Shown: positions 1 to 8,811, counted from the first letter of the stretch. The stretch is 56,096 bases of DNA from Candidatus Woesearchaeota archaeon (GCA_964365915.1 CAYIRJ010000001.1:1-56096), one strand, 5' to 3'. Notes: generated by a model from the letters alone, not told the origin. A program made the numbers and translations.

Positions 1-4
1 TGCT

Positions 5-586
5 TTGCATAAGTCCTTTAAGGAAAGACCTGTTCCTTTGATATTGCCTGCATTAGGTGTTTTTTTGCATAAGGGATTGGATTACTTACAAGGCACTTCA
101 CGGCACAGCAAGCGCGCAGTAGATCAGATCTGGCCTAATGTGCAAGGCATTCGCCAGGATGCGGATGAATCAAAGATGATGCCCTTATCAAAACGCGCAA
201 TCATCGGAGCAACAGGATTAAGCCAAGCTTTAGCTATGATTGCAGAATCAAGAGGGCACGCAATAGAAGAGAGTGCAAATCTTTTTTTGGGTGCGTTGCA
301 GTTTATTATCCCCTATTCAGGTGTGCTCTCCCTACCTTTCATCACCCAAGAAAAAGAAGGGGATGCGTATGCTGCATATGCTGCCCTAATGGAAAATATA
401 CAGCGGGAAATACAAGGGAAAAAGGAATCTTTGGAAACAGCTCTGGCCGTTGCAATTGCGGGAGAAAAGAAAGAAAAACTTTTAGATCAACTTTTAGATC
501 AGATAGCTTCGCCAACAGAAGGACGTTGGCTGCCCGTGCGGCGTTATATTGAAGGCTTGACAGATCAGAAGAGGTTTGCACAATGA
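5..586 (+). CDS. Hypothetical protein, 5'-partial (open to window edge); upstream partner of DGR target 1
   Basis: The reading frame is open to nt 2. Its TGA stop (584-586) overlaps the ATG of the next gene (ATGA). No domain recognised. The last residues (RFAQ) and the junction sequence aggtttgcaca are shared with the end of the 1403-3130 gene. Confidence 0.5.
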   Translation: MHKSFKERPVPLILPALGVFLHKGLDYLQGTSRHSKRAVDQIWPNVQGIRQDADESKMMPLSKRAIIGATGLSQALAMIAESRGHAIEESANLFLGALQFIIPYSGVLSLPFITQEKEGDAYAAYAALMENIQREIQGKKESLETALAVAIAGEKKEKLLDQLLDQIASPTEGRWLPVRRYIEGLTDQKRFAQ

Positions 587-1485
587 CTAAATCACGCTTA
601 ATTACCGGAAACAGGACTGCAGAGGATATTATTCGAGCCTATGAGCTGCGCGAGCAGGAACAAAGGAAGAAAGCAGAAACGTACGAAGAACAATATCATC
701 CAGAAAAACAAGAAGCAGAACCGGAACCTACAGTTCCTACATCTCCAGCATCACCTATCCAGGTGAACGATGCATCCTATATTATTCTACCAAGCCATAC
801 GCATAATACGTATTCTTATCCCGATCTGTTAGTAGCAAAGGCACGCTCCCATCAGAATCTGGAATGGAATCAAGCGCATCAAGCATTGCATCAGCAGCAA
901 GCATCCATGCTGACCATCAGACAGTTTGTAGACTTTTTAGCACATCTCAAGGCACGCAAAGTCTATGATGGCACAGGCAGCAAAGTTGCAAAAGCAGATA
1001 TCAAGCAACTCCTTGAAGATATTTTAGCTCAAAGAGCGCCCTGGAGAGCAGAATGGCTCGACGCTTTGTTCACAGAAGACAACGGGATTTGGAAAATAAA
1101 GTATGGTCATCAGGAGAAAAAAGGAAAGCTGGTAGCAAGATATCATGAGCCTTTGGAAGCCTGCATCCGGGAAGATTGCTATGTGAATCTGTTCAGCGCC
1201 AACAAGCAAGGCCTTCCCACCAGGAAAGTTAGCAAGCAGGAAATCTACTACTGGCAGCCCGGAAATGGTACTGTCGCGAGGTTCTTGGCGGATTCTGGTA
1301 GGGTCTGTATTGCGGCGGGGTTCGGCAGTACTCGGGTGCTGCTTTGGGGGTACGTGAAGTCCGCGAGCGCCGCTAGGCGCGAGCTCTGCAACGAAAATTT
1401 TTATGAAAAATCTCAAAAAAATCTTGGAACAGGAGAAAAACAGGATAGGGTTAGTCGGCACTCGCTTGCATCTTCAGCAGCCTGA
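583..1485 (+). CDS. DGR target protein paralog 1, with a frameshift inside its variable repeat
   Basis: The N-terminus (MTKSRLITGNRTAEDII) is paralogous to 3127-3903. Nt 865-1305 are identical to 3388-3828. A 4-nt gap after nt 1305, relative to VR2 and TR, shifts the frame. The ORF therefore skips the ancestral TAG (1374-1376) and runs to 1485, overlapping the next gene. Confidence 0.7.
   Translation: MTKSRLITGNRTAEDIIRAYELREQEQRKKAETYEEQYHPEKQEAEPEPTVPTSPASPIQVNDASYIILPSHTHNTYSYPDLLVAKARSHQNLEWNQAHQALHQQQASMLTIRQFVDFLAHLKARKVYDGTGSKVAKADIKQLLEDILAQRAPWRAEWLDALFTEDNGIWKIKYGHQEKKGKLVARYHEPLEACIREDCYVNLFSANKQGLPTRKVSKQEIYYWQPGNGTVARFLADSGRVCIAAGFGSTRVLLWGYVKSASAARRELCNENFYEKSQKNLGTGEKQDRVSRHSLASSAA
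1272..1353 (+). repeat. DGR variable repeat VR1
   Basis: Aligned by eye to TR 4161-4227 and 4246-4264. There are 14 substitutions, 12 of them at TR adenines. There is also a 4-nt deletion (TR aacc) and the 18-nt TR segment is absent. Confidence 0.8.
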
Positions 1486-3130
1486 AGAAGGAAGAGGCAT
1501 CAGCGAGCACATCACGCACGACTGGAGAGAGATCGTCATTGCCTTAAGAAAGGATATCGATCTTGCACCGGACAGCGCAACGCAGGAATATCTTGCAAAA
1601 GTAAAAAGTGCAGATCCCATACATACCGTAGCTTCTGACTTGTTAGTGCATGGGTGCGGGCATCGGGAGTTGCCTGCGTATTCAGGATTGGGCTGCCCAC
1701 ATTCTGTCATTCATCACGATCGAATTTTAGACGGCATAGCAGAAGCCTTGCAGAAGAAGAAAAAGAAAGGCCTTGAGCAGTATGTGGCAAATGCGTTCGA
1801 GGATGTGTTGGACAACGTCAATGCGCGCAGGCATACACGTCACGCCGGACAAGTTTTATTTTGGAACAACGAAGGCTTAGAAGCACAAGGAAAATTCCCT
1901 CCTTTCTATGAGGCATTTGTAAAAATCAACCTTGCCATGATGGGAAAACCAGAAGATGCAACGTTATTGCGGAGATTCTTTTCTAATGAATCAAAAGTGC
2001 AGCAGGCAGTAAAATCCTTCCTTAATTATATAAAAGAGAAGACGAATGTAGCGCATGTGGTGCGAGCCCATGAGCGACCAAGGCTCTTCAACCAGTTGTT
2101 TGAAAAAAAACACTGGCGAGATCTTGCGTATCAGTTTGCATGGGCAACTGCGGACTTGTTAGACCAGCAATCTACTCAAATGCGCCTCTGTTTTGGAAGC
2201 GATGAAAATCCTTTTGATAGGATGATGCGTCTTCCAGAATCTCAGGAAAAAATCGCGTATGGCAGATATCAGGCAGGCGAAGGTCCGAGCAAGCATACTG
2301 ATCAGCTATTACAGTTGGATGCCTTGTACCGAAAGATTTCCAAGGCAATTCCTGTAAAGACTTCGGAATATACTAAGGCCTCGGGAATGCCGTTGGTGTA
2401 TTTTGGAAGAAGAGCATTGCAGGAAGATGAAGATATTTCTCACGCACGTGTGAAAGGCATCGGCCTTGATGAATCAGGAAAACTAGGATTGCGGGTAGCG
2501 CGTCATGTACTGCAGCATCCTGCCACTTACAAAGTGCATCCAAGAAATTTTCCTAAATTGAAAGTGGCATTGTTAGACACCTCAGGAAGCATGGCACTCT
2601 CTCCTGAAAATGATGCGAATACAGGTTCAAAGCATTTCATTCCTTGGGGGGACAACAGCAAATATCATTTTGCATTAAAGGGGCTGTACGGCATTGATAA
2701 CTTCTTGGAGAAGCAGGGCGTTGCTCCCTATGTGGATTCAGAAGCAGTAACCTTCAGTAGCGAAACCACAAGAACAGGCAGAAGAAAGATGAGAAGCCTG
2801 GAAGAGCGCAAAGCCTTATTGAAAATACCCTCAGGGGGAACAACAATAAATATAAGAACATTTGAAGATGCGCTGTCCGATCCTTCATTTGTGGTTTCCA
2901 TCTCTGACGGGGACATTCTGAACTGGAAGGGAGTAAAGAAAAAATTTAAAGAAGTAATGCGGGGAAAAGCATATTGCCCCATTCACATTGGCAATGCAAA
3001 CACATTTACACAGGATGTAGAATCGTGGGGGATTCCTGTGCACTATGTCAAAGGCGATGACGATTTAAGTAGAATCATGATCGATACCGTTTCTCAGTAT
3101 TATCGGAAAGGAAGGTTTGCACAACCATGA
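1403..3130 (+). CDS. VWA (von Willebrand factor A) domain protein with an uncharacterised His/Cys-rich N-terminal region
   Basis: C-terminal MIDAS-like residues: LLDTSGSM (DxSxS), then SGGTTIN and SISDGD. The N-terminal region contains HGCGHRE and CPHSVIHHD. The stop overlaps the start of target 2 (ATGA). Confidence 0.8.
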   Translation: MKNLKKILEQEKNRIGLVGTRLHLQQPEEGRGISEHITHDWREIVIALRKDIDLAPDSATQEYLAKVKSADPIHTVASDLLVHGCGHRELPAYSGLGCPHSVIHHDRILDGIAEALQKKKKKGLEQYVANAFEDVLDNVNARRHTRHAGQVLFWNNEGLEAQGKFPPFYEAFVKINLAMMGKPEDATLLRRFFSNESKVQQAVKSFLNYIKEKTNVAHVVRAHERPRLFNQLFEKKHWRDLAYQFAWATADLLDQQSTQMRLCFGSDENPFDRMMRLPESQEKIAYGRYQAGEGPSKHTDQLLQLDALYRKISKAIPVKTSEYTKASGMPLVYFGRRALQEDEDISHARVKGIGLDESGKLGLRVARHVLQHPATYKVHPRNFPKLKVALLDTSGSMALSPENDANTGSKHFIPWGDNSKYHFALKGLYGIDNFLEKQGVAPYVDSEAVTFSSETTRTGRRKMRSLEERKALLKIPSGGTTINIRTFEDALSDPSFVVSISDGDILNWKGVKKKFKEVMRGKAYCPIHIGNANTFTQDVESWGIPVHYVKGDDDLSRIMIDTVSQYYRKGRFAQP

Positions 3131-3903
3131 AATCACGCCTCATCACCGGAAACAGGACTGCAGAGGATATCATCAAGGCATACGAGCTGCGCGAGCAGGA
3201 AAGAAAGAGCAAGAAAGCAGAAGTCCATGAAGAGCAATATCAGCCAGAAGAACCAGAAACTGCAATTCCAGCACCACAGCAATCTGCAGGTAAAGCAGCC
3301 TACATCATTCTGCCAGGTCATACCCATGATGCTTATTCCTATCCAGACCTATTAGTAGCAAAAGTACGTTCCCATCAAAGTAAAGATTGGAATCAAGCGC
3401 ATCAAGCATTGCATCAGCAGCAAGCATCCATGCTGACCATCAGACAGTTTGTAGACTTTTTAGCACATCTCAAGGCACGCAAAGTCTATGATGGCACAGG
3501 CAGCAAAGTTGCAAAAGCAGATATCAAGCAACTCCTTGAAGATATTTTAGCTCAAAGAGCGCCCTGGAGAGCAGAATGGCTCGACGCTTTGTTCACAGAA
3601 GACAACGGGATTTGGAAAATAAAGTATGGTCATCAGGAGAAAAAAGGAAAGCTGGTAGCAAGATATCATGAGCCTTTGGAAGCCTGCATCCGGGAAGATT
3701 GCTATGTGAATCTGTTCAGCGCCAACAAGCAAGGCCTTCCCACCAGGAAAGTTAGCAAGCAGGAAATCTACTACTGGCAGCCCGGAAATGGTACTGTCGC
3801 GAGGTTCTTGGCGGATTCTGGTAGGGTCGACCTGTATTGCTACGGGGATCGGCGGAGCTCGGTTGCTGCCTTGGGGGTACGTGAAGTCCGCGAGCGCCGC
3901 TAG
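3127..3903 (+). CDS. DGR target protein paralog 2 (intact); short C-type-lectin/FGE-like C-terminus carrying VR2
   Basis: The C-terminus reads GTVARFLADSGRVDLYCYGDRRSSVAALGVREV, and the corresponding TR frame reads SVARFRADSDRVNLNCNRDRQNS. No signal peptide or TM segment is visible. Confidence 0.85.
   Translation: MKSRLITGNRTAEDIIKAYELREQERKSKKAEVHEEQYQPEEPETAIPAPQQSAGKAAYIILPGHTHDAYSYPDLLVAKVRSHQSKDWNQAHQALHQQQASMLTIRQFVDFLAHLKARKVYDGTGSKVAKADIKQLLEDILAQRAPWRAEWLDALFTEDNGIWKIKYGHQEKKGKLVARYHEPLEACIREDCYVNLFSANKQGLPTRKVSKQEIYYWQPGNGTVARFLADSGRVDLYCYGDRRSSVAALGVREVRERR
3795..3880 (+). repeat. DGR variable repeat VR2
   Basis: There are 14 substitutions against the TR, 12 of them at TR adenines. 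It is followed by a GC-rich conserved flank shared with VR1 (an IMH-like region). Confidence 0.85.
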
Positions 3904-3940
3904 GCGCGAGCTCTGCAACGAAAAATTTTACGGGATATAT

Positions 3941-3949
3941 TTTTAAATA
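3941..3949 (+). promoter_or_regulatory. Candidate archaeal TATA box for the TR-RT transcript
   Basis: ttttaaata lies in the non-coding gap after target 2, about 210 nt upstream of the TR. Confidence 0.35.
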
Positions 3950-4160
3950 ACCAAGATTCTATTTTTTCGCCCTAGAGCTATCGGGAGCTTCCTCCCAAAG
4001 GAGAAGCGATGAAGGATACAAAGCTGGGGCTACACGTAAGCCTGCAAGTGCACGAAAGTGCCATGAAATACAATGACAACAATTAGTAGTAATGATCCAC
4101 CTTGGGAAAGTTGTGAATGAAGCTTGAAGTCATGGTGAAACTCAGCAGGCTTGCTACATC

Positions 4161-4264
4161 TGTCGCGAGGTTCAGGGCGGATTCTGATAGGGTCAACCTG
4201 AATTGCAACAGGGATCGGCAGAACTCGAAATCTTTTCAAGACGAGATTGCTGCTTTGGGAATAA
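4161..4264 (+). repeat. DGR template repeat (TR)
   Basis: Non-coding copy of the target 3' end. The frame corresponding to the VR frame has four AAY codons (AAC, AAT, AAC, AAC). It contains an extra 18 nt (4228-4245) absent from both VRs. It ends 18 nt before the RT ATG. Confidence 0.85.
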
Positions 4265-4282
4265 CACCAGCGCTCTAGGGAT

Positions 4283-5389
4283 ATGAAAACGTACCCAGAT
4301 ATTTATGCACAGCTCTGTTCTTTAGAAAATTTGGAAAGTGCATTCCAGAAAGCAAAGCTTGGCAAATCGAAAAAGTTGTATGTTCTAGAATTTGAAGCCA
4401 ATCTGAAAGAAAATTTAGAACAGTTGCAAAAAGAATTACAATTGCAGACCTACATGCCGCAGCCACTGAAAAGGTTTATCATCAGGGATCCAAAGACGAG
4501 AGTCATCCATGCATCTGCTTTCCTCGACAGGGTTGTCCACCATGCGATTACCAATGTGCTGGGTCCTATCTTTGAAAAGAAATTTGTTTATGATTCCTAT
4601 GCAAGTAGGGTAAATAAAGGCACGCATAAAGCAATACAGCGATTCGCGCAATTCATGAGAAAAGTCTCGAGAAACGGTGCGCAAGTAACGCAGGCAGCCA
4701 CAAACAATCACATTCAGGGATATGTGTTGAAGGCAGATATTCAGCATTATTTTGATACTGTAGATCATGAAATATTGATAGCTATTCTCAGAAAAATTGT
4801 TCCGGATGAGAAACTCATCAACCTAGTAAAGAAGATCTTGAATAATCTGGACATGAAAATTTCTGGCAAAGGAATGCCTTTGGGGAATTACACTTCACAA
4901 TTTTTTGCTAACGTGTACTTGAATGAACTAGACTATTTTGTTAAGCATGTCCTTCAATGCAAATATTACATCCGTTACGTGGATGACTTTGTGATCTTGC
5001 ACTCAAATAAGGGAATATTAGAAAACTATGGCGTACGTATTAAAGAATTTTTAAGAGCAATAAAGTTGGAATTGCATCCGCAAAAGTCCAAGATTCTCCC
5101 TTTGAAAGATGGGATTACATTTCTTGGATACAAAATATTCTATTGTTACAGGCTACTAAGAAGAAGGAACCGTTTCCGCTTTGAAAGAAGGTTCAAGGAC
5201 TATCTGCAGCAATGTAAGGATGGAGAATTAACCTATTTCGAAATTGTAACAAAGCTACAAGGATGGTTTGGATATGCGAAATGGGCAAATACGTACAGAT
5301 ACAGAAAATTGATTTTCAAAAGATTAAATCAAGAAGTATTAGCTCAACGCATACCGCAAGATAGCAGCCACTCCTCCCATGTCGCGTAG
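4283..5389 (+). CDS. DGR-type reverse transcriptase
   Basis: RT motifs seen: RVIHASAFLDRVVHHAI, YASRVNKGTHKAI, LKADIQHYFDTVDH, MPLGNYTSQFFANVYLNELD (the DGR hallmark I/LGxxxSQ) and YIRYVDDFV (YxDD). No group II maturase or endonuclease tail. Confidence 0.9.
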   Translation: MKTYPDIYAQLCSLENLESAFQKAKLGKSKKLYVLEFEANLKENLEQLQKELQLQTYMPQPLKRFIIRDPKTRVIHASAFLDRVVHHAITNVLGPIFEKKFVYDSYASRVNKGTHKAIQRFAQFMRKVSRNGAQVTQAATNNHIQGYVLKADIQHYFDTVDHEILIAILRKIVPDEKLINLVKKILNNLDMKISGKGMPLGNYTSQFFANVYLNELDYFVKHVLQCKYYIRYVDDFVILHSNKGILENYGVRIKEFLRAIKLELHPQKSKILPLKDGITFLGYKIFYCYRLLRRRNRFRFERRFKDYLQQCKDGELTYFEIVTKLQGWFGYAKWANTYRYRKLIFKRLNQEVLAQRIPQDSSHSSHVA

Positions 5390-6427
5390 CTGCTGCCCTT
5401 CCCTGCTTTGTGTGCTGATAATTTGCACTTTCGTGCCATGACCTTCAGCTTCATCCATTAATCCCTCTAACACGAATTCATCTAAGTCTTCGCTTAGCAG
5501 CAAAAGTTCTACTGCCCCCAGGTTCAATGCTTCATGGACTTCTTCTTTGCCATAAGAAGCCTTTTTCGGATCTTTTGCTAACGTCATCAAAAATCGTTCC
5601 ACTGCTTTTTTTTCTTCCACAATGTTCTCCTGTGCTAAAATATCTTTGCTTGCATCAACAAGATCGTGCAGTCCATGCTCATCCGTGTAGGTCAAATCAA
5701 ATATCCCTTTGACTTTGCGCTTCAATTCGTTATTCAATTGGTCAATAAAAGTGTTTTTGGTGTGTCCAGGCCCGCCGATCAAGACACCTTTCAAATCCTT
5801 GATCACAGGTAAAAATTGTTTGTCGCAGAATTCAGCAACCCTTTTATAAAATTCCAATGCCATGCCATCAATGAGCCTTTCCAGGCGTTGCGAGCTCTGT
5901 CCTCCCGCTTTAAACTTTCCCGGTACGCCAGAAGTAAGAGTATGCAGTACTTGAATATAGCTTCCGCGCATTAAGCCAACCGTCGCTTCCTTCCTATCCA
6001 TGACAATCAGCGCATAGAATTCCTTTTCCTCAAGCATCTGTTCTAAAATGTCAGTCTTGAAGGTTTGATCGCAGCGGTAAATGCGTTGCCCTATAGGAAC
6101 AGGGGGTTCAATGCTGAACACTTGAATGTCAATCTTATTTTCCTTGTCAGAAACGTTGCCAGCAAACACTGCTAATCCATTGGGCGGAGTTTTCTTGAAC
6201 AAGCGCAAATGATTGATCACTCTTCCTAAACTATCCACAACATTATTTCTTGTGCGTGCATCTTTAATATTCGTTGCAGTGCCTGCTTCCTGCTCCAAAT
6301 GCTGGATAATCTTGATAATATCGTACCCTGCAGGCACATATACCGAAACCAGTTCCGTATGCCTTCCGCGCATGTGTTGCAACGGCCTGATAAATTTCTT
6401 CAGTTTCAATTTCTCTTTGAGTTCCAT
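5339..6427 (-). CDS. prf1: Peptide chain release factor aRF1
   Basis: GGQ motif (KAGGQSSQRLERL). The NIKS-loop region reads TATNIKDARTRNNV. Length and domain order are typical of aRF1. Confidence 0.95.
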   Translation of the reverse strand: MELKEKLKLKKFIRPLQHMRGRHTELVSVYVPAGYDIIKIIQHLEQEAGTATNIKDARTRNNVVDSLGRVINHLRLFKKTPPNGLAVFAGNVSDKENKIDIQVFSIEPPVPIGQRIYRCDQTFKTDILEQMLEEKEFYALIVMDRKEATVGLMRGSYIQVLHTLTSGVPGKFKAGGQSSQRLERLIDGMALEFYKRVAEFCDKQFLPVIKDLKGVLIGGPGHTKNTFIDQLNNELKRKVKGIFDLTYTDEHGLHDLVDASKDILAQENIVEEKKAVERFLMTLAKDPKKASYGKEEVHEALNLGAVELLLLSEDLDEFVLEGLMDEAEGHGTKVQIISTQSREGQQLRDMGGVAAILRYALS

Positions 6428-6429
6428 GG

Positions 6430-8811
6430 TTAATGGGTAATCTTCAGTTCAGTTCCAAATGTAATGGTTGCGCAAGTCACCGCAGCAAGGTCGTATAAGA
6501 CTTCTGCAAGGCGCTCTTCCGTGTCTTTGGGCAAGATAAGCTGGACGGGTTTTTTCAGGTTGAGCTGGTGCTGTGCCTTGTACTTTCTTACCTCTTGCAA
6601 AACTGCAATGAACTCCTCGCCTATCTTTTCCTCAGGCTCATACGCAAAATGTTGAACAACAGGCCAGGAAGAGAGATGAATGGAGAGAGCTTCCTCATCT
6701 TTTTTGAAATGCGACTGGTAAATTTCTTCAGTAATGAAAGGCATGAGGGGGGCAAATAATTTCAACAAGGTCTTCAGGCAAAGATGCAGAGTATATTGCG
6801 CAGATCTTTTTGATTCTCCATTCCGCTCTGTATTGTACAGTCTATCTTTGGCAATTTCCAGATAGTGATCACAGAATGTTGTCCAAAAGAACTGCTCGGT
6901 TTCGAATTTTGCCTTTGCATACTCATAATCATCAAGATATTTCGTGCAGTGTGCTACAAGCCGGTCAAGTTTCTGGAGTAACCAGCGGTCGATCACTTCC
7001 ACATGGTCCGGCGCAATGCCTGAATATTCTTGCAAATTGCTCAAAACAAGATGCGCTGCATTCCAGAGTTTCGTAACCGTCTTCTGTCCAGTAATGAGGT
7101 CTTTTTCCTGGTAGCTGATGTCTTCTCCCAGTTTGCTGCCTGCTGCCCAGAAGCGCAGAGCATCCGCCCCGAATTTTTTCATTACCTCAATAGGGTCAAG
7201 GACATTGCCTTTGCTCTTGCTCATTTTTTCCCCTTGAGGGTCAACTACATAGCCAGAAATAGTGATATGCTTCCAGGGAATAGAATTGTGCAAGTATAAA
7301 CTCTTGACGATGGTATAGAATGCCCATGTAGAAATGATGTCTTGCGCCTGCGGGCGCAAGTCCATGGGAATTTTTTCCTGAATACCATAAGTGGAAAATG
7401 CAATCTGCGGCGACACAGAGGAAGTTGCCCAGGTATCCATCACATCCTTTTCAGGAACAAATGCAGAAGATCCGCAATGGCATTTCTTTTTCGGTGGCTT
7501 GTCTTTCAGAGGATCCACAGGCAAGTCTTTTACATCTGCAAGAATAATTTCATCGCACTGCTTGCAGTACCATACAGGAAAGGGAATGCCAAAGAATCGC
7601 TGTCTGCTAATACACCAATCCCATTGTAAATTTTCCACCCAGTGTTCATAGCGTTTTTTCATAAACTCGGGGTACCAGATGATAGTATTGCCTGCTGTAA
7701 TCCAGTCTTCCTTTTTGTCAAGCACGCGCGTGAACCATTGCTTTGTTTTCAAAAACTCAATCGGTGTGTTACAGCGTTCATGAACATTAGTAGTATGGTG
7801 AATATTTTTTTGGTTTTTTAATAAGCCGGAAGTTTTCAGGTCTTCAAGAATTGCTTTTCTAGCATGGTGGATAGGAAGTTTGGCATATTTCCCTGCAAGT
7901 TCATTCAGTGTTCCGTCTTTGTTGAAGATTGCGCGCAAGGGTAATTTATACTGGTGCCATAATTCAATATCTGATTTGTCACCAAAGGTACACACCATCA
8001 TTAAACCCGTACCTTTTTCCCGATCAACCTTTGCATCTGCTAAGATAGGAATTTCATAAGGGAATAAAGGAACAGTTGCATGCTTGCCAATGTATTTTTT
8101 GTAACGCTTGTCTTCAGGATGCGCAAATAAAGCAACACACGCAGGAAGCAATTCAGGACGCGTTGTAGCAATGATGACTGAATCTTTTCCAACAGTGAAC
8201 TGAATATCATTGAATAAACTATCTTTCTCCAAATCTTTTAATTCTGCTTGGGCAATCGCAGTCTGGCATTCTACACACCACATCGTCGGAGATTCCTGCC
8301 GATACACTGCTCCTTGATGATAGAGTTCAATGAATGCTTGCTGGCTAATCTTTTGTGAAGTCTCATCAATAGTTGAGTAGCTCTTGCTAAAATCACAACT
8401 CATGCCCAGGTTTTTCCACGGCTGCACAAAATCCTTTTTGATTTCTTTAATGGTGGTAAAGCAGAGTTTGACAAATTCCGGACGGGACATACTCACGCCT
8501 TTGACATTTTTCATCTTTTCTACTAAGCGTTCAGTTGGCAATCCATTATCATCGGTGCCAAACGGACAAAACACATTGAATCCTTGCATTCTTTTATAGC
8601 GTGCAATAAAATCTTGCTGCGCATACGAGAAGGCATGGCCGATATGCATTTTGCCAGAAACAGTGGGGGGAGGAGTATCAATAGTAAATGATTTCTTTTT
8701 TGCTTTCGTAGCAAAAGAATAAATCTTGTGCTTCTCCCAGTAGGCTAACCACTTCTGTTCTGTTGCTTGAGGGGTAAAGGTAGGCATATGGTTGGTCTTC
8801 CAACAACCCAT
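6430..8811 (-). CDS. valS: Valyl-tRNA synthetase (archaeal type)
   Basis: TPPPTVSGKMHIGH (HIGH motif) and KMSKSKGN (KMSKS motif), with a class Ia editing-domain architecture. The true start may be the internal Met at 8787. Confidence 0.93.
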   Translation of the reverse strand: MGCWKTNHMPTFTPQATEQKWLAYWEKHKIYSFATKAKKKSFTIDTPPPTVSGKMHIGHAFSYAQQDFIARYKRMQGFNVFCPFGTDDNGLPTERLVEKMKNVKGVSMSRPEFVKLCFTTIKEIKKDFVQPWKNLGMSCDFSKSYSTIDETSQKISQQAFIELYHQGAVYRQESPTMWCVECQTAIAQAELKDLEKDSLFNDIQFTVGKDSVIIATTRPELLPACVALFAHPEDKRYKKYIGKHATVPLFPYEIPILADAKVDREKGTGLMMVCTFGDKSDIELWHQYKLPLRAIFNKDGTLNELAGKYAKLPIHHARKAILEDLKTSGLLKNQKNIHHTTNVHERCNTPIEFLKTKQWFTRVLDKKEDWITAGNTIIWYPEFMKKRYEHWVENLQWDWCISRQRFFGIPFPVWYCKQCDEIILADVKDLPVDPLKDKPPKKKCHCGSSAFVPEKDVMDTWATSSVSPQIAFSTYGIQEKIPMDLRPQAQDIISTWAFYTIVKSLYLHNSIPWKHITISGYVVDPQGEKMSKSKGNVLDPIEVMKKFGADALRFWAAGSKLGEDISYQEKDLITGQKTVTKLWNAAHLVLSNLQEYSGIAPDHVEVIDRWLLQKLDRLVAHCTKYLDDYEYAKAKFETEQFFWTTFCDHYLEIAKDRLYNTERNGESKRSAQYTLHLCLKTLLKLFAPLMPFITEEIYQSHFKKDEEALSIHLSSWPVVQHFAYEPEEKIGEEFIAVLQEVRKYKAQHQLNLKKPVQLILPKDTEERLAEVLYDLAAVTCATITFGTELKITH

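Follow-up and report, generated by a model that had tools for sequence, protein, structure and literature searches.

The window analysed here, a 56,096-nt stretch from a Candidatus Woesearchaeota archaeon (GCA_964365915.1, CAYIRJ010000001.1:1-56096), begins with a gene cassette in the order MoxR-type AAA+ ATPase, target, VWA protein, target, which is conserved across DPANN and is followed here by a reverse transcriptase (RT) gene; all features described below lie on the plus strand. The ATPase gene (5-586), cut by the window start, is present as the C-terminal fragment of a MoxR/AAA_5-type protein that measures ~400 aa in relatives. Using tblastn, we found that target 1 is preceded by an ATPase homologue in 11 related loci; the full-length homologues matched PF07728 (AAA_5) in 11 of 11 and bpMoxR in two of 11 cases, and a profile search matched the midasin AAA ring. 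Target gene 2 (VP2, 3127-3903) is intact and encodes 258 aa. It belongs to a family of 49 clusters, DPANN for all those named, with the conserved frame VA.F.A..G...L.C....P..S..LGVR interspersed with hypervariable positions. Target gene 1 (VP1, 583-1485) is 87% identical to VP2 over residues 2-234, and its variable repeat VR1 carries a 4-nt deletion (at 1304/1305) relative to positions 4194-4197 of the TR. Owing to this deletion, ORF 583-1485 changes frame and continues into the next gene without the conserved ALGVR end, resulting in 300 aa compared to the 258 aa of VP2.

The 575-aa protein encoded between the targets (1403-3130) comprises an N-terminal helical domain and a C-terminal VWA/MIDAS domain, as judged from an AF2 model and Foldseek. 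The helical domain contains an HExxH-like motif (HGCGH in the window) and the VWA domain a DxSGS motif (DTSGS, residues 392-396). The model (pLDDT 82) matched Rea1-MIDAS, the NorD VWA domain, and integrin I domains with a Foldseek probability of 1.00; the matches of the VWA domain include NorD in the NorQ-NorD complex. We detected 127 homologue clusters at E <= 0.001, with DPANN for every source name shown. Pfam and NCBIfam gave no match for either target or the 575-aa protein, and sequence and profile searches of the PDB returned nothing for target or 575-aa protein. Foldseek comparison of the target model (pLDDT 74) with PDB and BFVD likewise gave no significant match, with scattered weak CTLD matches and one TvpA-like match at a probability of only 0.1-0.2. 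Because the target genes share a cassette with the genes of a MoxR-type ATPase and a VWA protein, their products are most likely the variable ligand-recognition parts of a MoxR-VWA machine.

The TR (4160-4266), located between target gene 2 and the RT gene, matches the 3' ends of both targets, namely VR1 (1271-1355, including the IMH at 1344-1354) and VR2 (3794-3882, including the IMH TTGGGGGTACG at 3871-3881), each within the last ~35 codons of its target ORF. Both VRs lack an 18-nt segment of the TR, and we aligned them to a spliced TR consisting of exon 1 (4160-4229), homologous to both VRs, and exon 2 (4248-4266), which matches the VRs and contains the IMH* TTGGGAATAAC (4255-4265). VR2 showed 17 mismatches over 89 nt, 14 of them at the 23 adenines of the TR (Fisher 5e-8), and VR1 16 mismatches over 85 nt, again with 14 at adenines (Fisher 3e-9). 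The mismatches outside adenines are G4175->T in both VRs, T4254->C in VR2 only (T at the same site in another assembly, L193), and C4265->G within the IMH. The TR, read in frame, gives RVNLNCNRDRQNS and has four AAY codons; VR2 encodes RVDLYCYGDRRSS. The IMH/IMH* pair of the window is TGGGGGT/TGGGAAT; as read from all loci examined, the AA of GGAAUA in the IMH*, which is always GG in the VRs, is the fixed IMH/IMH* difference. GC hairpins (GCGCC-GCTA-GGCGC), predicted by MFE folding, lie 3' of VR1 (1367-1380) and 3' of VR2 (3894-3907); the two copies are identical in sequence, and the loop of the second contains the VP2 stop codon. An adenine-specific TR/VR pattern recurs in ~35 related loci. 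Together, these comparisons confirm a genuine diversity-generating retroelement (DGR) of a DPANN archaeon that diversifies two paralogous genes.

A preliminary description of this DNA had already read the locus as a DGR, and most of its observations could be reproduced. Under its own alignment, 14 substitutions in each VR, 12 of them at TR adenines, were recovered, and in our computed alignment the mismatches are likewise concentrated at adenines rather than spread evenly over the four bases. Translation returned both the four AAY codons opposite the VR2 residues and the claimed RT hallmark motif PLGNYTSQFFANVYLNELD plus YVDD. Its six VR1/VR2 differences, all assigned to TR adenines, had to be revised to eight, with seven at TR adenines and one at T4254. 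The flanks are indeed identical, over 407 nt 5' of the VR, or 441 nt if counted to the first position at which the VRs differ, and over 45 nt on the 3' side, where about 50 nt had been given. The TR had been placed at 4161-4227 and 4246-4264; the homology stands, and the gap left unexplained there is the 18-nt segment absent from both VRs. This putative TR intron, the RT-16 RNA, the VR1 frameshift, and the MoxR partner were all missing from the earlier account.

The 18-nt segment (4230-4247) has the features of a putative BHB mini-intron. Based on folding and covariation, the motif (4224-4248) consists of a 4-bp helix H (CUCG 4224-4227/CGAG 4242-4245), bulge 1 (AAA, 4228-4230), an inner hairpin (4231-4241), and bulge 2 (AUU, 4246-4248), and the predicted junction 4229|4248 lies 2 nt past each strand of H. 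Archaeal splicing endonuclease cuts between the second and third bulge nucleotide, corresponding to A14/A15 in the ARMAN-2 structure (PMC12397907). The H(4 bp)-AAA-hairpin-H-3 nt arrangement was found in 11 genome loci and ~37 metagenome TRs with an intron length of 17-24 nt. H shows compensatory variants (UUCG/CGAA, CUUG/CAAG) and a wobble variant (CGGG), and the inner stem varies from 2 to 9 bp with free sequence and compensatory changes. This inner hairpin, h', is found throughout and shows covariation. Pairing between the exons in the outer helix h is good in some loci (GCAGAA/UUCUGC) but weak or absent in the window and several other loci, so that the motif fits the relaxed HBh' form; in the MFE fold of the window, two of the three bases of bulge 2 are paired.

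To define the junction, we compared TR-VR pairs from ~30 loci. In 43 of 44 pairs (20/21 and 23/23), the segment is missing from the VR with ends that coincide precisely with the canonical cleavage positions. Among all junctions tested, keeping 2 nt of bulge 1 and removing 2 nt of bulge 2 gave the fewest mismatches outside adenines in 20 of 21 pairs, and the other 23 VRs agree with the spliced TR as predicted, 17 of them being free of such mismatches. In all segment-free pairs, the VR base past the two A-derived bases is the third base of bulge 2, namely T in most loci, with C in L001 and L019. Junctions (0,0) and (1,1) fitted only four of the 21 pairs, and junction (3,3) would put a mutable A where the VRs always show this third base. 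A BHL geometry with its 3' cut in the hairpin loop was rejected as well, as it predicts that AAGACGAG is kept and the VRs are devoid of AAGACGAG. Adenine mutagenesis is visible on both sides of the junction, and intron-free TRs read ...CGAA|U..., identical to the spliced product. The single exception, the VR at L003 4558-5250, retains the segment, A-mutated, as an in-frame 5-aa insertion.

Read from DNA, these patterns suggest that the segment is removed from the TR RNA by the host splicing endonuclease and a ligase (RtcB). BHB motifs occur also in mRNA and rRNA (PMC6379350). A related locus, L009, carries a tRNA gene with a ~99-nt insertion in the anticodon loop, which indicates that the splicing pathway is in use in the lineage; ARAGORN found no tRNA in the window, and it also missed the interrupted tRNAs of relatives. 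Among the papers covered by our literature search, none linked BHB motifs or the splicing endonuclease with DGRs.

Alternatively, the RT might jump over the folded hairpin on unspliced TR RNA, in which case the segment would be skipped rather than spliced out. Group II-related RTs are known to switch templates, the segment forms a stable local hairpin, and the one VR that keeps it could reflect occasional read-through. However, bypass at the base of the hairpin would delete 4224-4245, whereas 4230-4247 is lost: the 5' helix strand is kept together with two bulge bases, and the 3' strand is lost together with two more. Such asymmetry is what the endonuclease rule prescribes, and 43 of 44 pairs conform to it; the junction is without microhomology. 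We therefore regard skipping by the RT as unlikely and favour splicing of the TR RNA.

The TR is embedded in a structured RNA. An A/T-rich, archaeal TATA-like element, TATATTTTTAAAT (3936-3948), lies ~25 nt 5' of the first helix of this RNA; across 34 aligned loci its consensus AAAAnTTTTTAAA keeps a constant distance, and the element is a putative promoter. Directly upstream of the TR and ending at the TR start, we identified the RT-16 RNA (Rfam RF03019; 3993-4162) with 78.7 bits compared to a gathering score of 50 (model positions 1-158); the window is a poor fit to the model's first hairpin. RT-16 directly precedes the TR, adjoining the RT, in all 31 loci scanned (30 of 30 relatives and the window). 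Two covarying helices join the 5' leader to the 3' flank of the TR. In P0, the 5' strand CCCUAGAGC (3970-3978) pairs with the 3' strand GCUCUAGGG (4271-4279), which ends 3 nt before the RT start codon. In P0', positions 4026-4029, directly 5' of the invariant CUACACG (4030-4036), pair with 4265-4268.

Misalignment of the 3' flank in the raw MAFFT alignment hid P0 from RNAalifold, and P0 was therefore tested alignment-free by comparing own-locus with cross-locus pairing. The mean pairing run was 8.3 bp with own-locus flanks versus 5.8 bp with flanks of other loci (permutation p<1e-4), and many compensatory variants were observed across loci. For P0', 97% of cells are paired, and each of its four base pairs varies on both strands. 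The RT-16 core stem (4036-4045/4145-4154) covaries as well; taken together, core stem and P0' are paired in 96.6% of cells, compared to 76% in shuffles and 28-48% with slid partner columns, and 12 of 14 pairs show both-side changes. An MFE fold of the window RNA alone recovered P0, the core stem, and the hairpin. The P0/P0' fold would place the 3' end of the TR, with GGAAUA of the IMH*, beside the invariant CUACACG. By analogy with the Sp RNA of Bordetella phage, this junction may constitute the priming site and RT-16 may support priming.

Since RT, RNA structure, and TR are intact and the VRs have diversified independently, it is plausible that the element is active or was so recently. Against present-day activity, target 1 is frameshifted, and VR2 showed no variation between two independent consensus assemblies; the second of these was the only further assembly to span VR2, as three others break at the VR2 end. 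The frameshift and the unchanged VR2, together with the 18 nt by which the TR of the window differs from its own VRs, would also suit a fossil element in which the TR insertion postdates the last homing and the VR/TR likeness is historical only. Several observations speak against such a fossil. The same segment with conserved structure is found in ~48 TRs whose RTs are only ~50-60% identical, and on either side of the segment the VRs of each lineage share non-A changes with their own TR, indicating that transfer across the segment continued after it had arisen. The RT ORF, catalytic motifs, and RNA helices are intact, and VR1 and VR2 differ at TR adenines amid otherwise identical stretches. 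A fossil is thus very improbable.

The RT (368 aa, 4283-5389) matched RVT_1 (2e-24), and its best PDB match is Bordetella phage bRT (8ub7, E=1e-43, compared to 3e-22 for group II RTs). Its motif LGNYTSQ fits the DGR RT motif [I/V/L]GxxxSQ as defined in PMC7826257, and by motif and PDB similarity the protein is assigned as a bRT-like RT of the DGR type. A non-DGR reading, with an RT of group II intron or retron origin and repeats that are simply remnants of paralogues, has in its favour that the best NCBIfam match is a group II RT/maturase (168 bits, under the cut-off of 300) with no DGR RT model among the NCBIfam matches, yet it is refuted, and its probability negligible, given a bRT match 20 orders of magnitude better than group II RTs, the DGR-specific LGxxxSQ motif, the absence of intron RNA domains with RT-16 as the sole Rfam match, and the adenine specificity of mismatches in both the window and ~35 relatives. 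Avd is present in most DGRs and is not needed for membership. No convincing small basic ORF that could encode Avd was detected in the window, and the interval between target 2 and the RT gene is without an ORF besides the TR. Accessory genes are absent in 29% of catalogued DGRs (PMC5758913), and the Avd-less layout is thus not unusual. The two-target, VWA-linked, Avd-less layout with non-secreted targets that had been singled out previously was borne out by homologue, Foldseek, and small-ORF searches and is common to many DPANN genomes.

Based on these data, we propose the following route. A single transcript of ~315 nt (roughly 3968-4282), probably extending into the RT gene, would fold such that P0 and P0' connect the 5' leader and the sequence 3' of the TR, with the RT-16 domain and the TR forming two arms of one junction. 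The host tRNA-splicing endonuclease would cut the TR RNA 2 nt past each strand of the 4-bp helix, removing 4230-4247, and a host ligase would rejoin the TR exons. The RT would then copy the spliced RNA from just 5' of GGAAUA to ~4160, misincorporating opposite adenines, and the cDNA would replace the homologous 3' end of either paralogous target gene, yielding cytoplasmic proteins with a hypervariable C-terminus. While the element class is already known, we hold with good confidence that a DPANN-type DGR with this spliced-TR mechanism best explains the locus. Its more specific parts, namely that the TR RNA carries a host-spliced BHB intron, the first in a retroelement, that homing writes the spliced and occasionally the unspliced form, and that RT-16 is a self-priming scaffold that allows these DGRs to function in the absence of Avd, appear likely.

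Such an intron would be a natural, built-in marker of the RNA intermediate that shows which RNA form is reverse transcribed, and it would tie DGR activity to the host tRNA-splicing machinery. As its length is not a multiple of three in many loci, only spliced RNA would yield an in-frame target there, and splicing could in turn gate or license diversification. If true, these loci hold a natural record that DGR information passes through processed RNA. The compact ~315-nt RNA, with covarying helices and an invariant junction of CUACACG facing GGAAUA, bears on priming and processivity without Avd, and the orphan Rfam family RT-16 gains a biological context. Moreover, the MoxR-VWA-DGR association is extended from multicellular bacteria to ultra-small archaea, and the diversified targets are here cytoplasmic, unlike surface adhesins.

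DGRs of nano-sized archaea were, as the preliminary description had noted, known before; they were described in 2015 with an IMH TGGGGT and an IMH* TGGAAT (Paul et al. 2015, PMC4372165). The nanoarchaeal (DUSEL4)/DPANN elements of that study resemble the window in archaeal host, several targets per element, orphan target proteins, the IMH/IMH* pair, and a hairpin overlapping the target gene end. In contrast, their hairpins have GRA triloops rather than a GCTA tetraloop, and PMC4372165 makes no mention of a TR insertion or intron, a structured RNA around the TR, or MoxR/VWA partners. With the DGR of Bordetella phage BPP-1 (mtd-avd-TR-Sp-brt), the element shares a bRT-like RT with [I/V/L]GxxxSQ and an Arg74 equivalent, adenine mutagenesis, IMH/IMH* directionality, a GC hairpin past the VR, and a structured RNA adjoining the TR, which in BPP-1 is required for self-priming (PMC7826257). 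It differs in lacking Avd, in having two targets and an intron in the TR, and in the position of the structured RNA: RT-16 lies 5' of the TR, with long-range helices clamping the TR 3' end, whereas BPP-1 has its structured RNA, a 140-nt spacer corresponding to the Rfam RT-10 motif (PMC5737381), on the 3' side of the TR. Unlike in BPP-1, the RT start codon follows the TR after only 19 nt.

The gene neighbourhood resembles the 'ternary' MoxR-vWA conflict systems of cyanobacteria and gammaproteobacteria, in which a DGR diversifies FGS/C-type-lectin domains (Kaur et al. 2020, PMC7159879; PMC10907252). Both combine a MoxR-class AAA+ ATPase, a VWA protein, and a DGR-diversified ligand-binding module, with apparently cytoplasmic components. 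Here, however, the host is archaeal, a beta-propeller or effector partner is not seen, the VWA protein has an N-terminal HExxH-like helical domain, and the variable module, a small protein of its own present in two or three copies, is not fused to the VWA protein. As for the intron, relaxed BHB motifs are tolerated by broad-specificity enzymes, themselves common in DPANN (PMC6379350, PMC5829648, PMC12397907). The putative intron shares with archaeal BHB introns cleaved by EndA/VSEN the 4-bp central helix, 3-nt bulges, a cut past the second bulge base, and a variable intron hairpin. It is small (17-24 nt), its host RNA is a retroelement template instead of a tRNA, rRNA, or mRNA, and its loss would be recorded in DNA via reverse transcription. 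Guo et al. in 2008 reportedly engineered a self-splicing group I intron into the BPP-1 TR to prove the RNA intermediate. There as here, the TR intron is precisely absent from the VR after homing, but that intron was an artificial group I intron, whereas the one described here is natural, conserved, and putatively spliced by protein enzymes.

Local alignment and a repeat finder returned three copies of a repeat of ~85 nt in the window, all on the forward strand: the template repeat (TR, 4160-4266), which lies 17 nt upstream of the reverse transcriptase (RT) ORF (4283-5389), and two variable repeats, VR2 (3794-3882) at the end of ORF 3127-3903 (target 2) and VR1 (1271-1355) at the end of ORF 583-1485 (target 1), with ORFs listed over window positions 1-6600. 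The element is a true diversity-generating retroelement (DGR) of the known DPANN kind, and the interpretation of the preliminary description stands on the RT type, the A-specific TR/VR differences, the pair of end motifs (IMH in the VR, IMH* in the TR) and the hairpins. The RT matched the Bordetella phage DGR RT (8ub7) with E=1e-43, compared with 3e-22 for the best group II intron RT, and it carries the equivalent of bRT Arg74 together with the DGR signature [I/V/L]GxxxSQ, which is replaced by QGxxxSP in RTs of the group II and retroviral types (PMC7826257). The previously claimed motifs PLGNYTSQFFANVYLNELD and YVDD are both present. A group II RT identity was the top NCBIfam match, among which no DGR RT model was returned, but its score fell far under the model cut-off and it was rejected. 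The VRs end in TTGGGGGTACG and the TR in TTGGGAATAAC, and a fold placed the hairpin GCGCC-GCTA-GGCGC 3' of each VR. No Avd-like ORF was found in the cassette (ORF list, small basic ORFs checked), which is not unusual because the accessory gene is absent from 29% of catalogued DGRs (PMC5758913).

Splitting the TR into 4161-4227 and 4246-4264, as had been done previously, conceals an 18-nt segment (4230-4247) that the TR has and both VRs lack. Under that same alignment the earlier counts of 14 mismatches per VR, 12 of them at TR adenines, were exactly reproduced, and the TR frame does hold four AAY codons (RVNLNCNRDRQNS), with VR2 coding for RVDLYCYGDRRSS; the six differences reported between VR1 and VR2 became eight on recounting. 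When aligned to the spliced TR, seven of these eight fall at TR adenines, as do 14 of 17 mismatches in VR2 (Fisher 5e-8) and 14 of 16 in VR1 (Fisher 3e-9). The VR1 alignment requires a 4-nt deletion (TR 4194-4197; window 1304/1305) relative to both TR and VR2, and ORF 583-1485 therefore departs from the family frame within VR1, no longer has the conserved ...ALGVR end and overlaps the start of the next gene (VWA gene, 1403). This deletion could be a real defect, a slip of the RT in homing or a low-coverage assembly error. Because it is frameshifted in VR1, the target 1 copy as assembled would be currently defective, or else it is misassembled at 3-5x coverage. The two targets are perfectly identical over 441 nt (864-1304 vs 3387-3827) and only ~80-90% identical in their 5' thirds; this pattern points to a recent gene conversion event involving the two paralogues, upstream of the stretch covered by the TR. 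A homologue of the target proteins (NCBI MEK6812626.1, partial, 231 aa) shares ~206 identical residues with VP2, the product of target 2, and departs from it in the 20 residues immediately preceding the VR (KKTSKQKIYFWHPRNN vs RKVSKQEIYYWQPGNG). It may be the product of a third allele, of a third paralogue or of recombination outside the stretch that the TR covers.

Printed TR/VR alignments showed an insertion of 17-24 nt at the same TR site in eleven loci, with the conserved shape CUCG-AAA-[hairpin]-CGAG-NNN and an inner stem that covaries (UCUU/AAGA, UCA/UGA, UCAUG/CAUGA, UCUAA/UUAGA). The same VRs show adenine substitutions at both sides of the segment, and the VRs of each lineage follow the non-A changes of their own TR at both sides, so that the cDNA spans the site yet lacks the segment. 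The geometry is that of the archaeal bulge-helix-bulge (BHB) motif, in which the splicing endonuclease cuts after the second nucleotide of each three-base bulge, at A14/A15 in the structure of the ARMAN-2 enzyme with RNA (PMC12397907). For the window this rule predicts an exon 1 ending in CUCGAA at 4229, an intron at 4230-4247 and an exon 2 from U4248, and alignment across this junction turns an odd VR1 mismatch, T4247 to G, into A4229 to G. Scoring all 16 offset combinations on 21 TR-VR pairs by non-A mismatches placed the minimum at the BHB junction in 20 of the 21. Offsets (0,0) and (1,1) were rejected, with only 4 of 21 pairs fitting. Offset (3,3) reached a tie only by putting a mutable A at the position in question, where the VRs always carry the third base of bulge 2 (mostly T, C in loci L001 and L019), which settles the choice in favour of the BHB junction. 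One exception was observed: the upstream target of locus L003 (ORF 4558-5250) keeps the segment, adenine-mutated and 3 nt shorter, as an in-frame insertion of 5 residues in an intact ORF, the outcome expected of a cDNA made from unspliced RNA.

A metagenome scan anchored on the conserved TR sequence flanking the site, in which the segment itself was not required, revealed ~37 further TRs with the segment. Their central helix shows compensatory (UUCG/CGAA, CUUG/CAAG) and wobble (CGGG) variants, their inner stem ranges from 2 to 9 bp with unrelated sequences, and bulge 1 is invariably AAA. All 23 VRs on the metagenome contigs lack it and agree with the spliced TR as predicted; in 17 VRs, zero non-A mismatches were counted over ~82 nt. 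TRs without the intron in sister loci read CGAA directly followed by U, identical to the spliced product, and the intron-bearing elements are not monophyletic in a rough RT tree. The segment is thus most likely a BHB mini-intron, taken out by a host enzyme before reverse transcription. The main rival explanation, that the RT itself skips the segment, is disfavoured because the deletion is asymmetric about the hairpin base and its junction is without microhomology. As for splicing by a host enzyme, the outer exon-exon helix of the strict BHB is good in some loci (GCAGAA/UUCUGC) and weak in the window, where the motif is thus of the relaxed kind; broad-specificity endonucleases accept relaxed motifs, and the L3 loop insertion of DPANN enzymes is associated with more disrupted tRNA genes (PMC5829648). 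In the related locus L009, Rfam identified a tRNA gene (7826-7997, reverse strand) with a ~99-nt insertion in the anticodon loop. Over-long Rfam tRNA matches were also seen at L011 8807-8954, L066 3919-4035 and L057 580-685, all four having been missed by ARAGORN; they resemble tRNA genes with introns, situated next to the DGR cassette. Within the library of papers searched, none was found in which 'bulge-helix-bulge' or 'splicing endonuclease' occurs together with 'diversity-generating retroelement'. This conserved, probable tRNA-type mini-intron, which lies within the template repeat and the loss of which is recorded in the targets, was overlooked in the preliminary description and is worth describing.

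Also skipped over was the RNA frame holding the template, identified here as the RT-16 motif and two long-range helices. RT-16 (RF03019), the sole Rfam match in the 56-kb window, lies at 3993-4162 and ends where the TR starts; Rfam returned no further RNA family and ARAGORN no tRNA gene in window 1-56096, whose GC content is 36-46%. RT-16 is an orphan motif known only as lying near RT genes, and its authors assigned RT-10 alone to a DGR, as the BPP-1 spacer (PMC5737381). It adjoins the RT in 30/30 relatives scanned. Run on 34 aligned loci (from -375 to +5 relative to the RT start), RNAalifold gave the RT-16 core stem (4036-4045 with 4145-4154) and the helix P0' (4026-4029 with 4265-4268), which joins the bases immediately 5' of an invariant CUACACG to those immediately 3' of IMH*. 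For these two helices 96.6% of cells are paired, compared with 76% when shuffled and 28-48% with slid partners, and in 12 of 14 pairs both partner bases vary. A duplex search added the outer helix P0 (3970-3978, CCCUAGAGC, with 4271-4279, GCUCUAGGG), which ends 3 nt before the RT AUG and is backed by many compensatory variants; an alignment-free test gave a mean run of 8.3 bp within loci vs 5.8 bp across loci (permutation p<1e-4). The MFE fold of the window RNA alone recovered P0, the core stem and the intron hairpin. The TR thereby forms an arm of a closed multi-helix RNA. Also conserved in the alignment is a TATA-like, A/T-rich box located ~25 nt upstream of P0, which makes P0 the probable start of the transcript. 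In L011 and L012 (alignment A2 columns 400-450), the 3' part of RT-16 holds a 50-nt insertion with its own hairpin before the 3' strand of the core stem; the scaffold therefore tolerates an extra arm there.

Mutated adenines reach within 2 nt of GGAAUA (in L014), yet its AA is always GG in VRs, which implies that cDNA synthesis begins right at this junction. The Bordetella phage has a structured spacer on the 3' side of its TR, which contributes the adenosine used for priming and positions it at the start site (PMC7826257), whereas RT-16 in the window element lies 5' of the TR. By analogy, we infer that RT-16, P0 and P0' may do the priming and alignment job from the 5' side, as a scaffold working without Avd.

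The target proteins form a family of 49 clusters with no Pfam domain, every named one of which is DPANN, and their C-terminus is a conserved frame interspersed with hypervariable positions. Scanning one genome per species yielded 70 loci, and nearly all of these lie in MAGs labelled Woese-, Pace- or Nanoarchaeota; of the four with other labels, three are Methanosarcinales-type bins and one is a Maribellus bin. tblastn with four window proteins showed a conserved cassette of ATPase, target, 575-aa protein and target, sometimes with three targets, and with the RT on one flank or the other. In ~35 loci a TR lies upstream of the RT and differs from the local VRs almost exclusively at its adenines (e.g. 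14/14, 16/16 and 18/18). The two-target, VWA-linked, Avd-less layout noted before is thereby borne out and is common to DPANN relatives rather than peculiar to this contig, a conserved DPANN DGR type because the cassette and the A-specific pattern recur. In L008, a third target copy (6361-6942) has a VR with 7 non-A mismatches to the TR and a differing 3' end, and looks like a decaying or escaped target. In L013, an RT homologue (1863-2939) precedes the cassette in the same orientation, with no TR or IMH* found in the 600 nt before it; its TR may be elsewhere. In the window, housekeeping genes (aRF1, ValRS) directly abut the DGR, and the last 51 nt of the RT ORF (5339-5389) are shared with the 3' end of the convergent aRF1 (eRF1-family) gene.

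A 5,050-nt sequence assembled independently from the same aquifer differs from the window at one base (3887), with VR2 the same. This T/G difference between assemblies (L072 and L193-L195 examined) changes Val to Gly immediately after the IMH. Three further assemblies carrying the window's RT all stop within 3870-3895, where VR2 ends, which is compatible with repeats, microdiversity or both; at 3870, a non-A, non-IMH VR2 mismatch, the window has C and one of the three has T. Positions 3887 and 3870 are the only ones at which these assemblies depart from the window. The intact RT, TR and RNA structure, together with independent A-site differences between VRs in otherwise identical DNA, argue for recent activity.

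The cassette opens with an ATPase gene cut by the window start (5-586, forward strand), which encodes the C-terminal part of a ~400-aa ATPase whose homologues all match AAA_5, two of them also bpMoxR. No Pfam domain was found in the 575-aa protein; its AF2 model (pLDDT 82) has a C-terminal VWA/MIDAS domain that Foldseek matched with probability 1.00 to Rea1-MIDAS, NorD of the NorQ-NorD complex and integrin I domains. The protein carries a DxSGS motif and an N-terminal HExxH-like motif. HExxH is present in most relatives; residues 83-87 of the window protein (1649-1663) read HGCGH, the Glu being missing, so metallopeptidase-like activity may be lost in this copy. No target or partner protein has a hydrophobic segment, in agreement with the earlier view of the targets as non-secreted. 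Foldseek returned no significant match for the AF2 model of the target (pLDDT 74), so no fold was assigned to it. The IMH/IMH* pair TGGGGT/TGGAAT reported in nanoarchaeal DGRs (PMC4372165) is also found at the window VR and TR ends. MoxR-vWA systems with DGR-diversified lectin-fold modules are known from cyanobacteria and gammaproteobacteria (PMC7159879), and the window cassette is an archaeal counterpart of these bacterial systems, with the difference that its variable modules are separate proteins.
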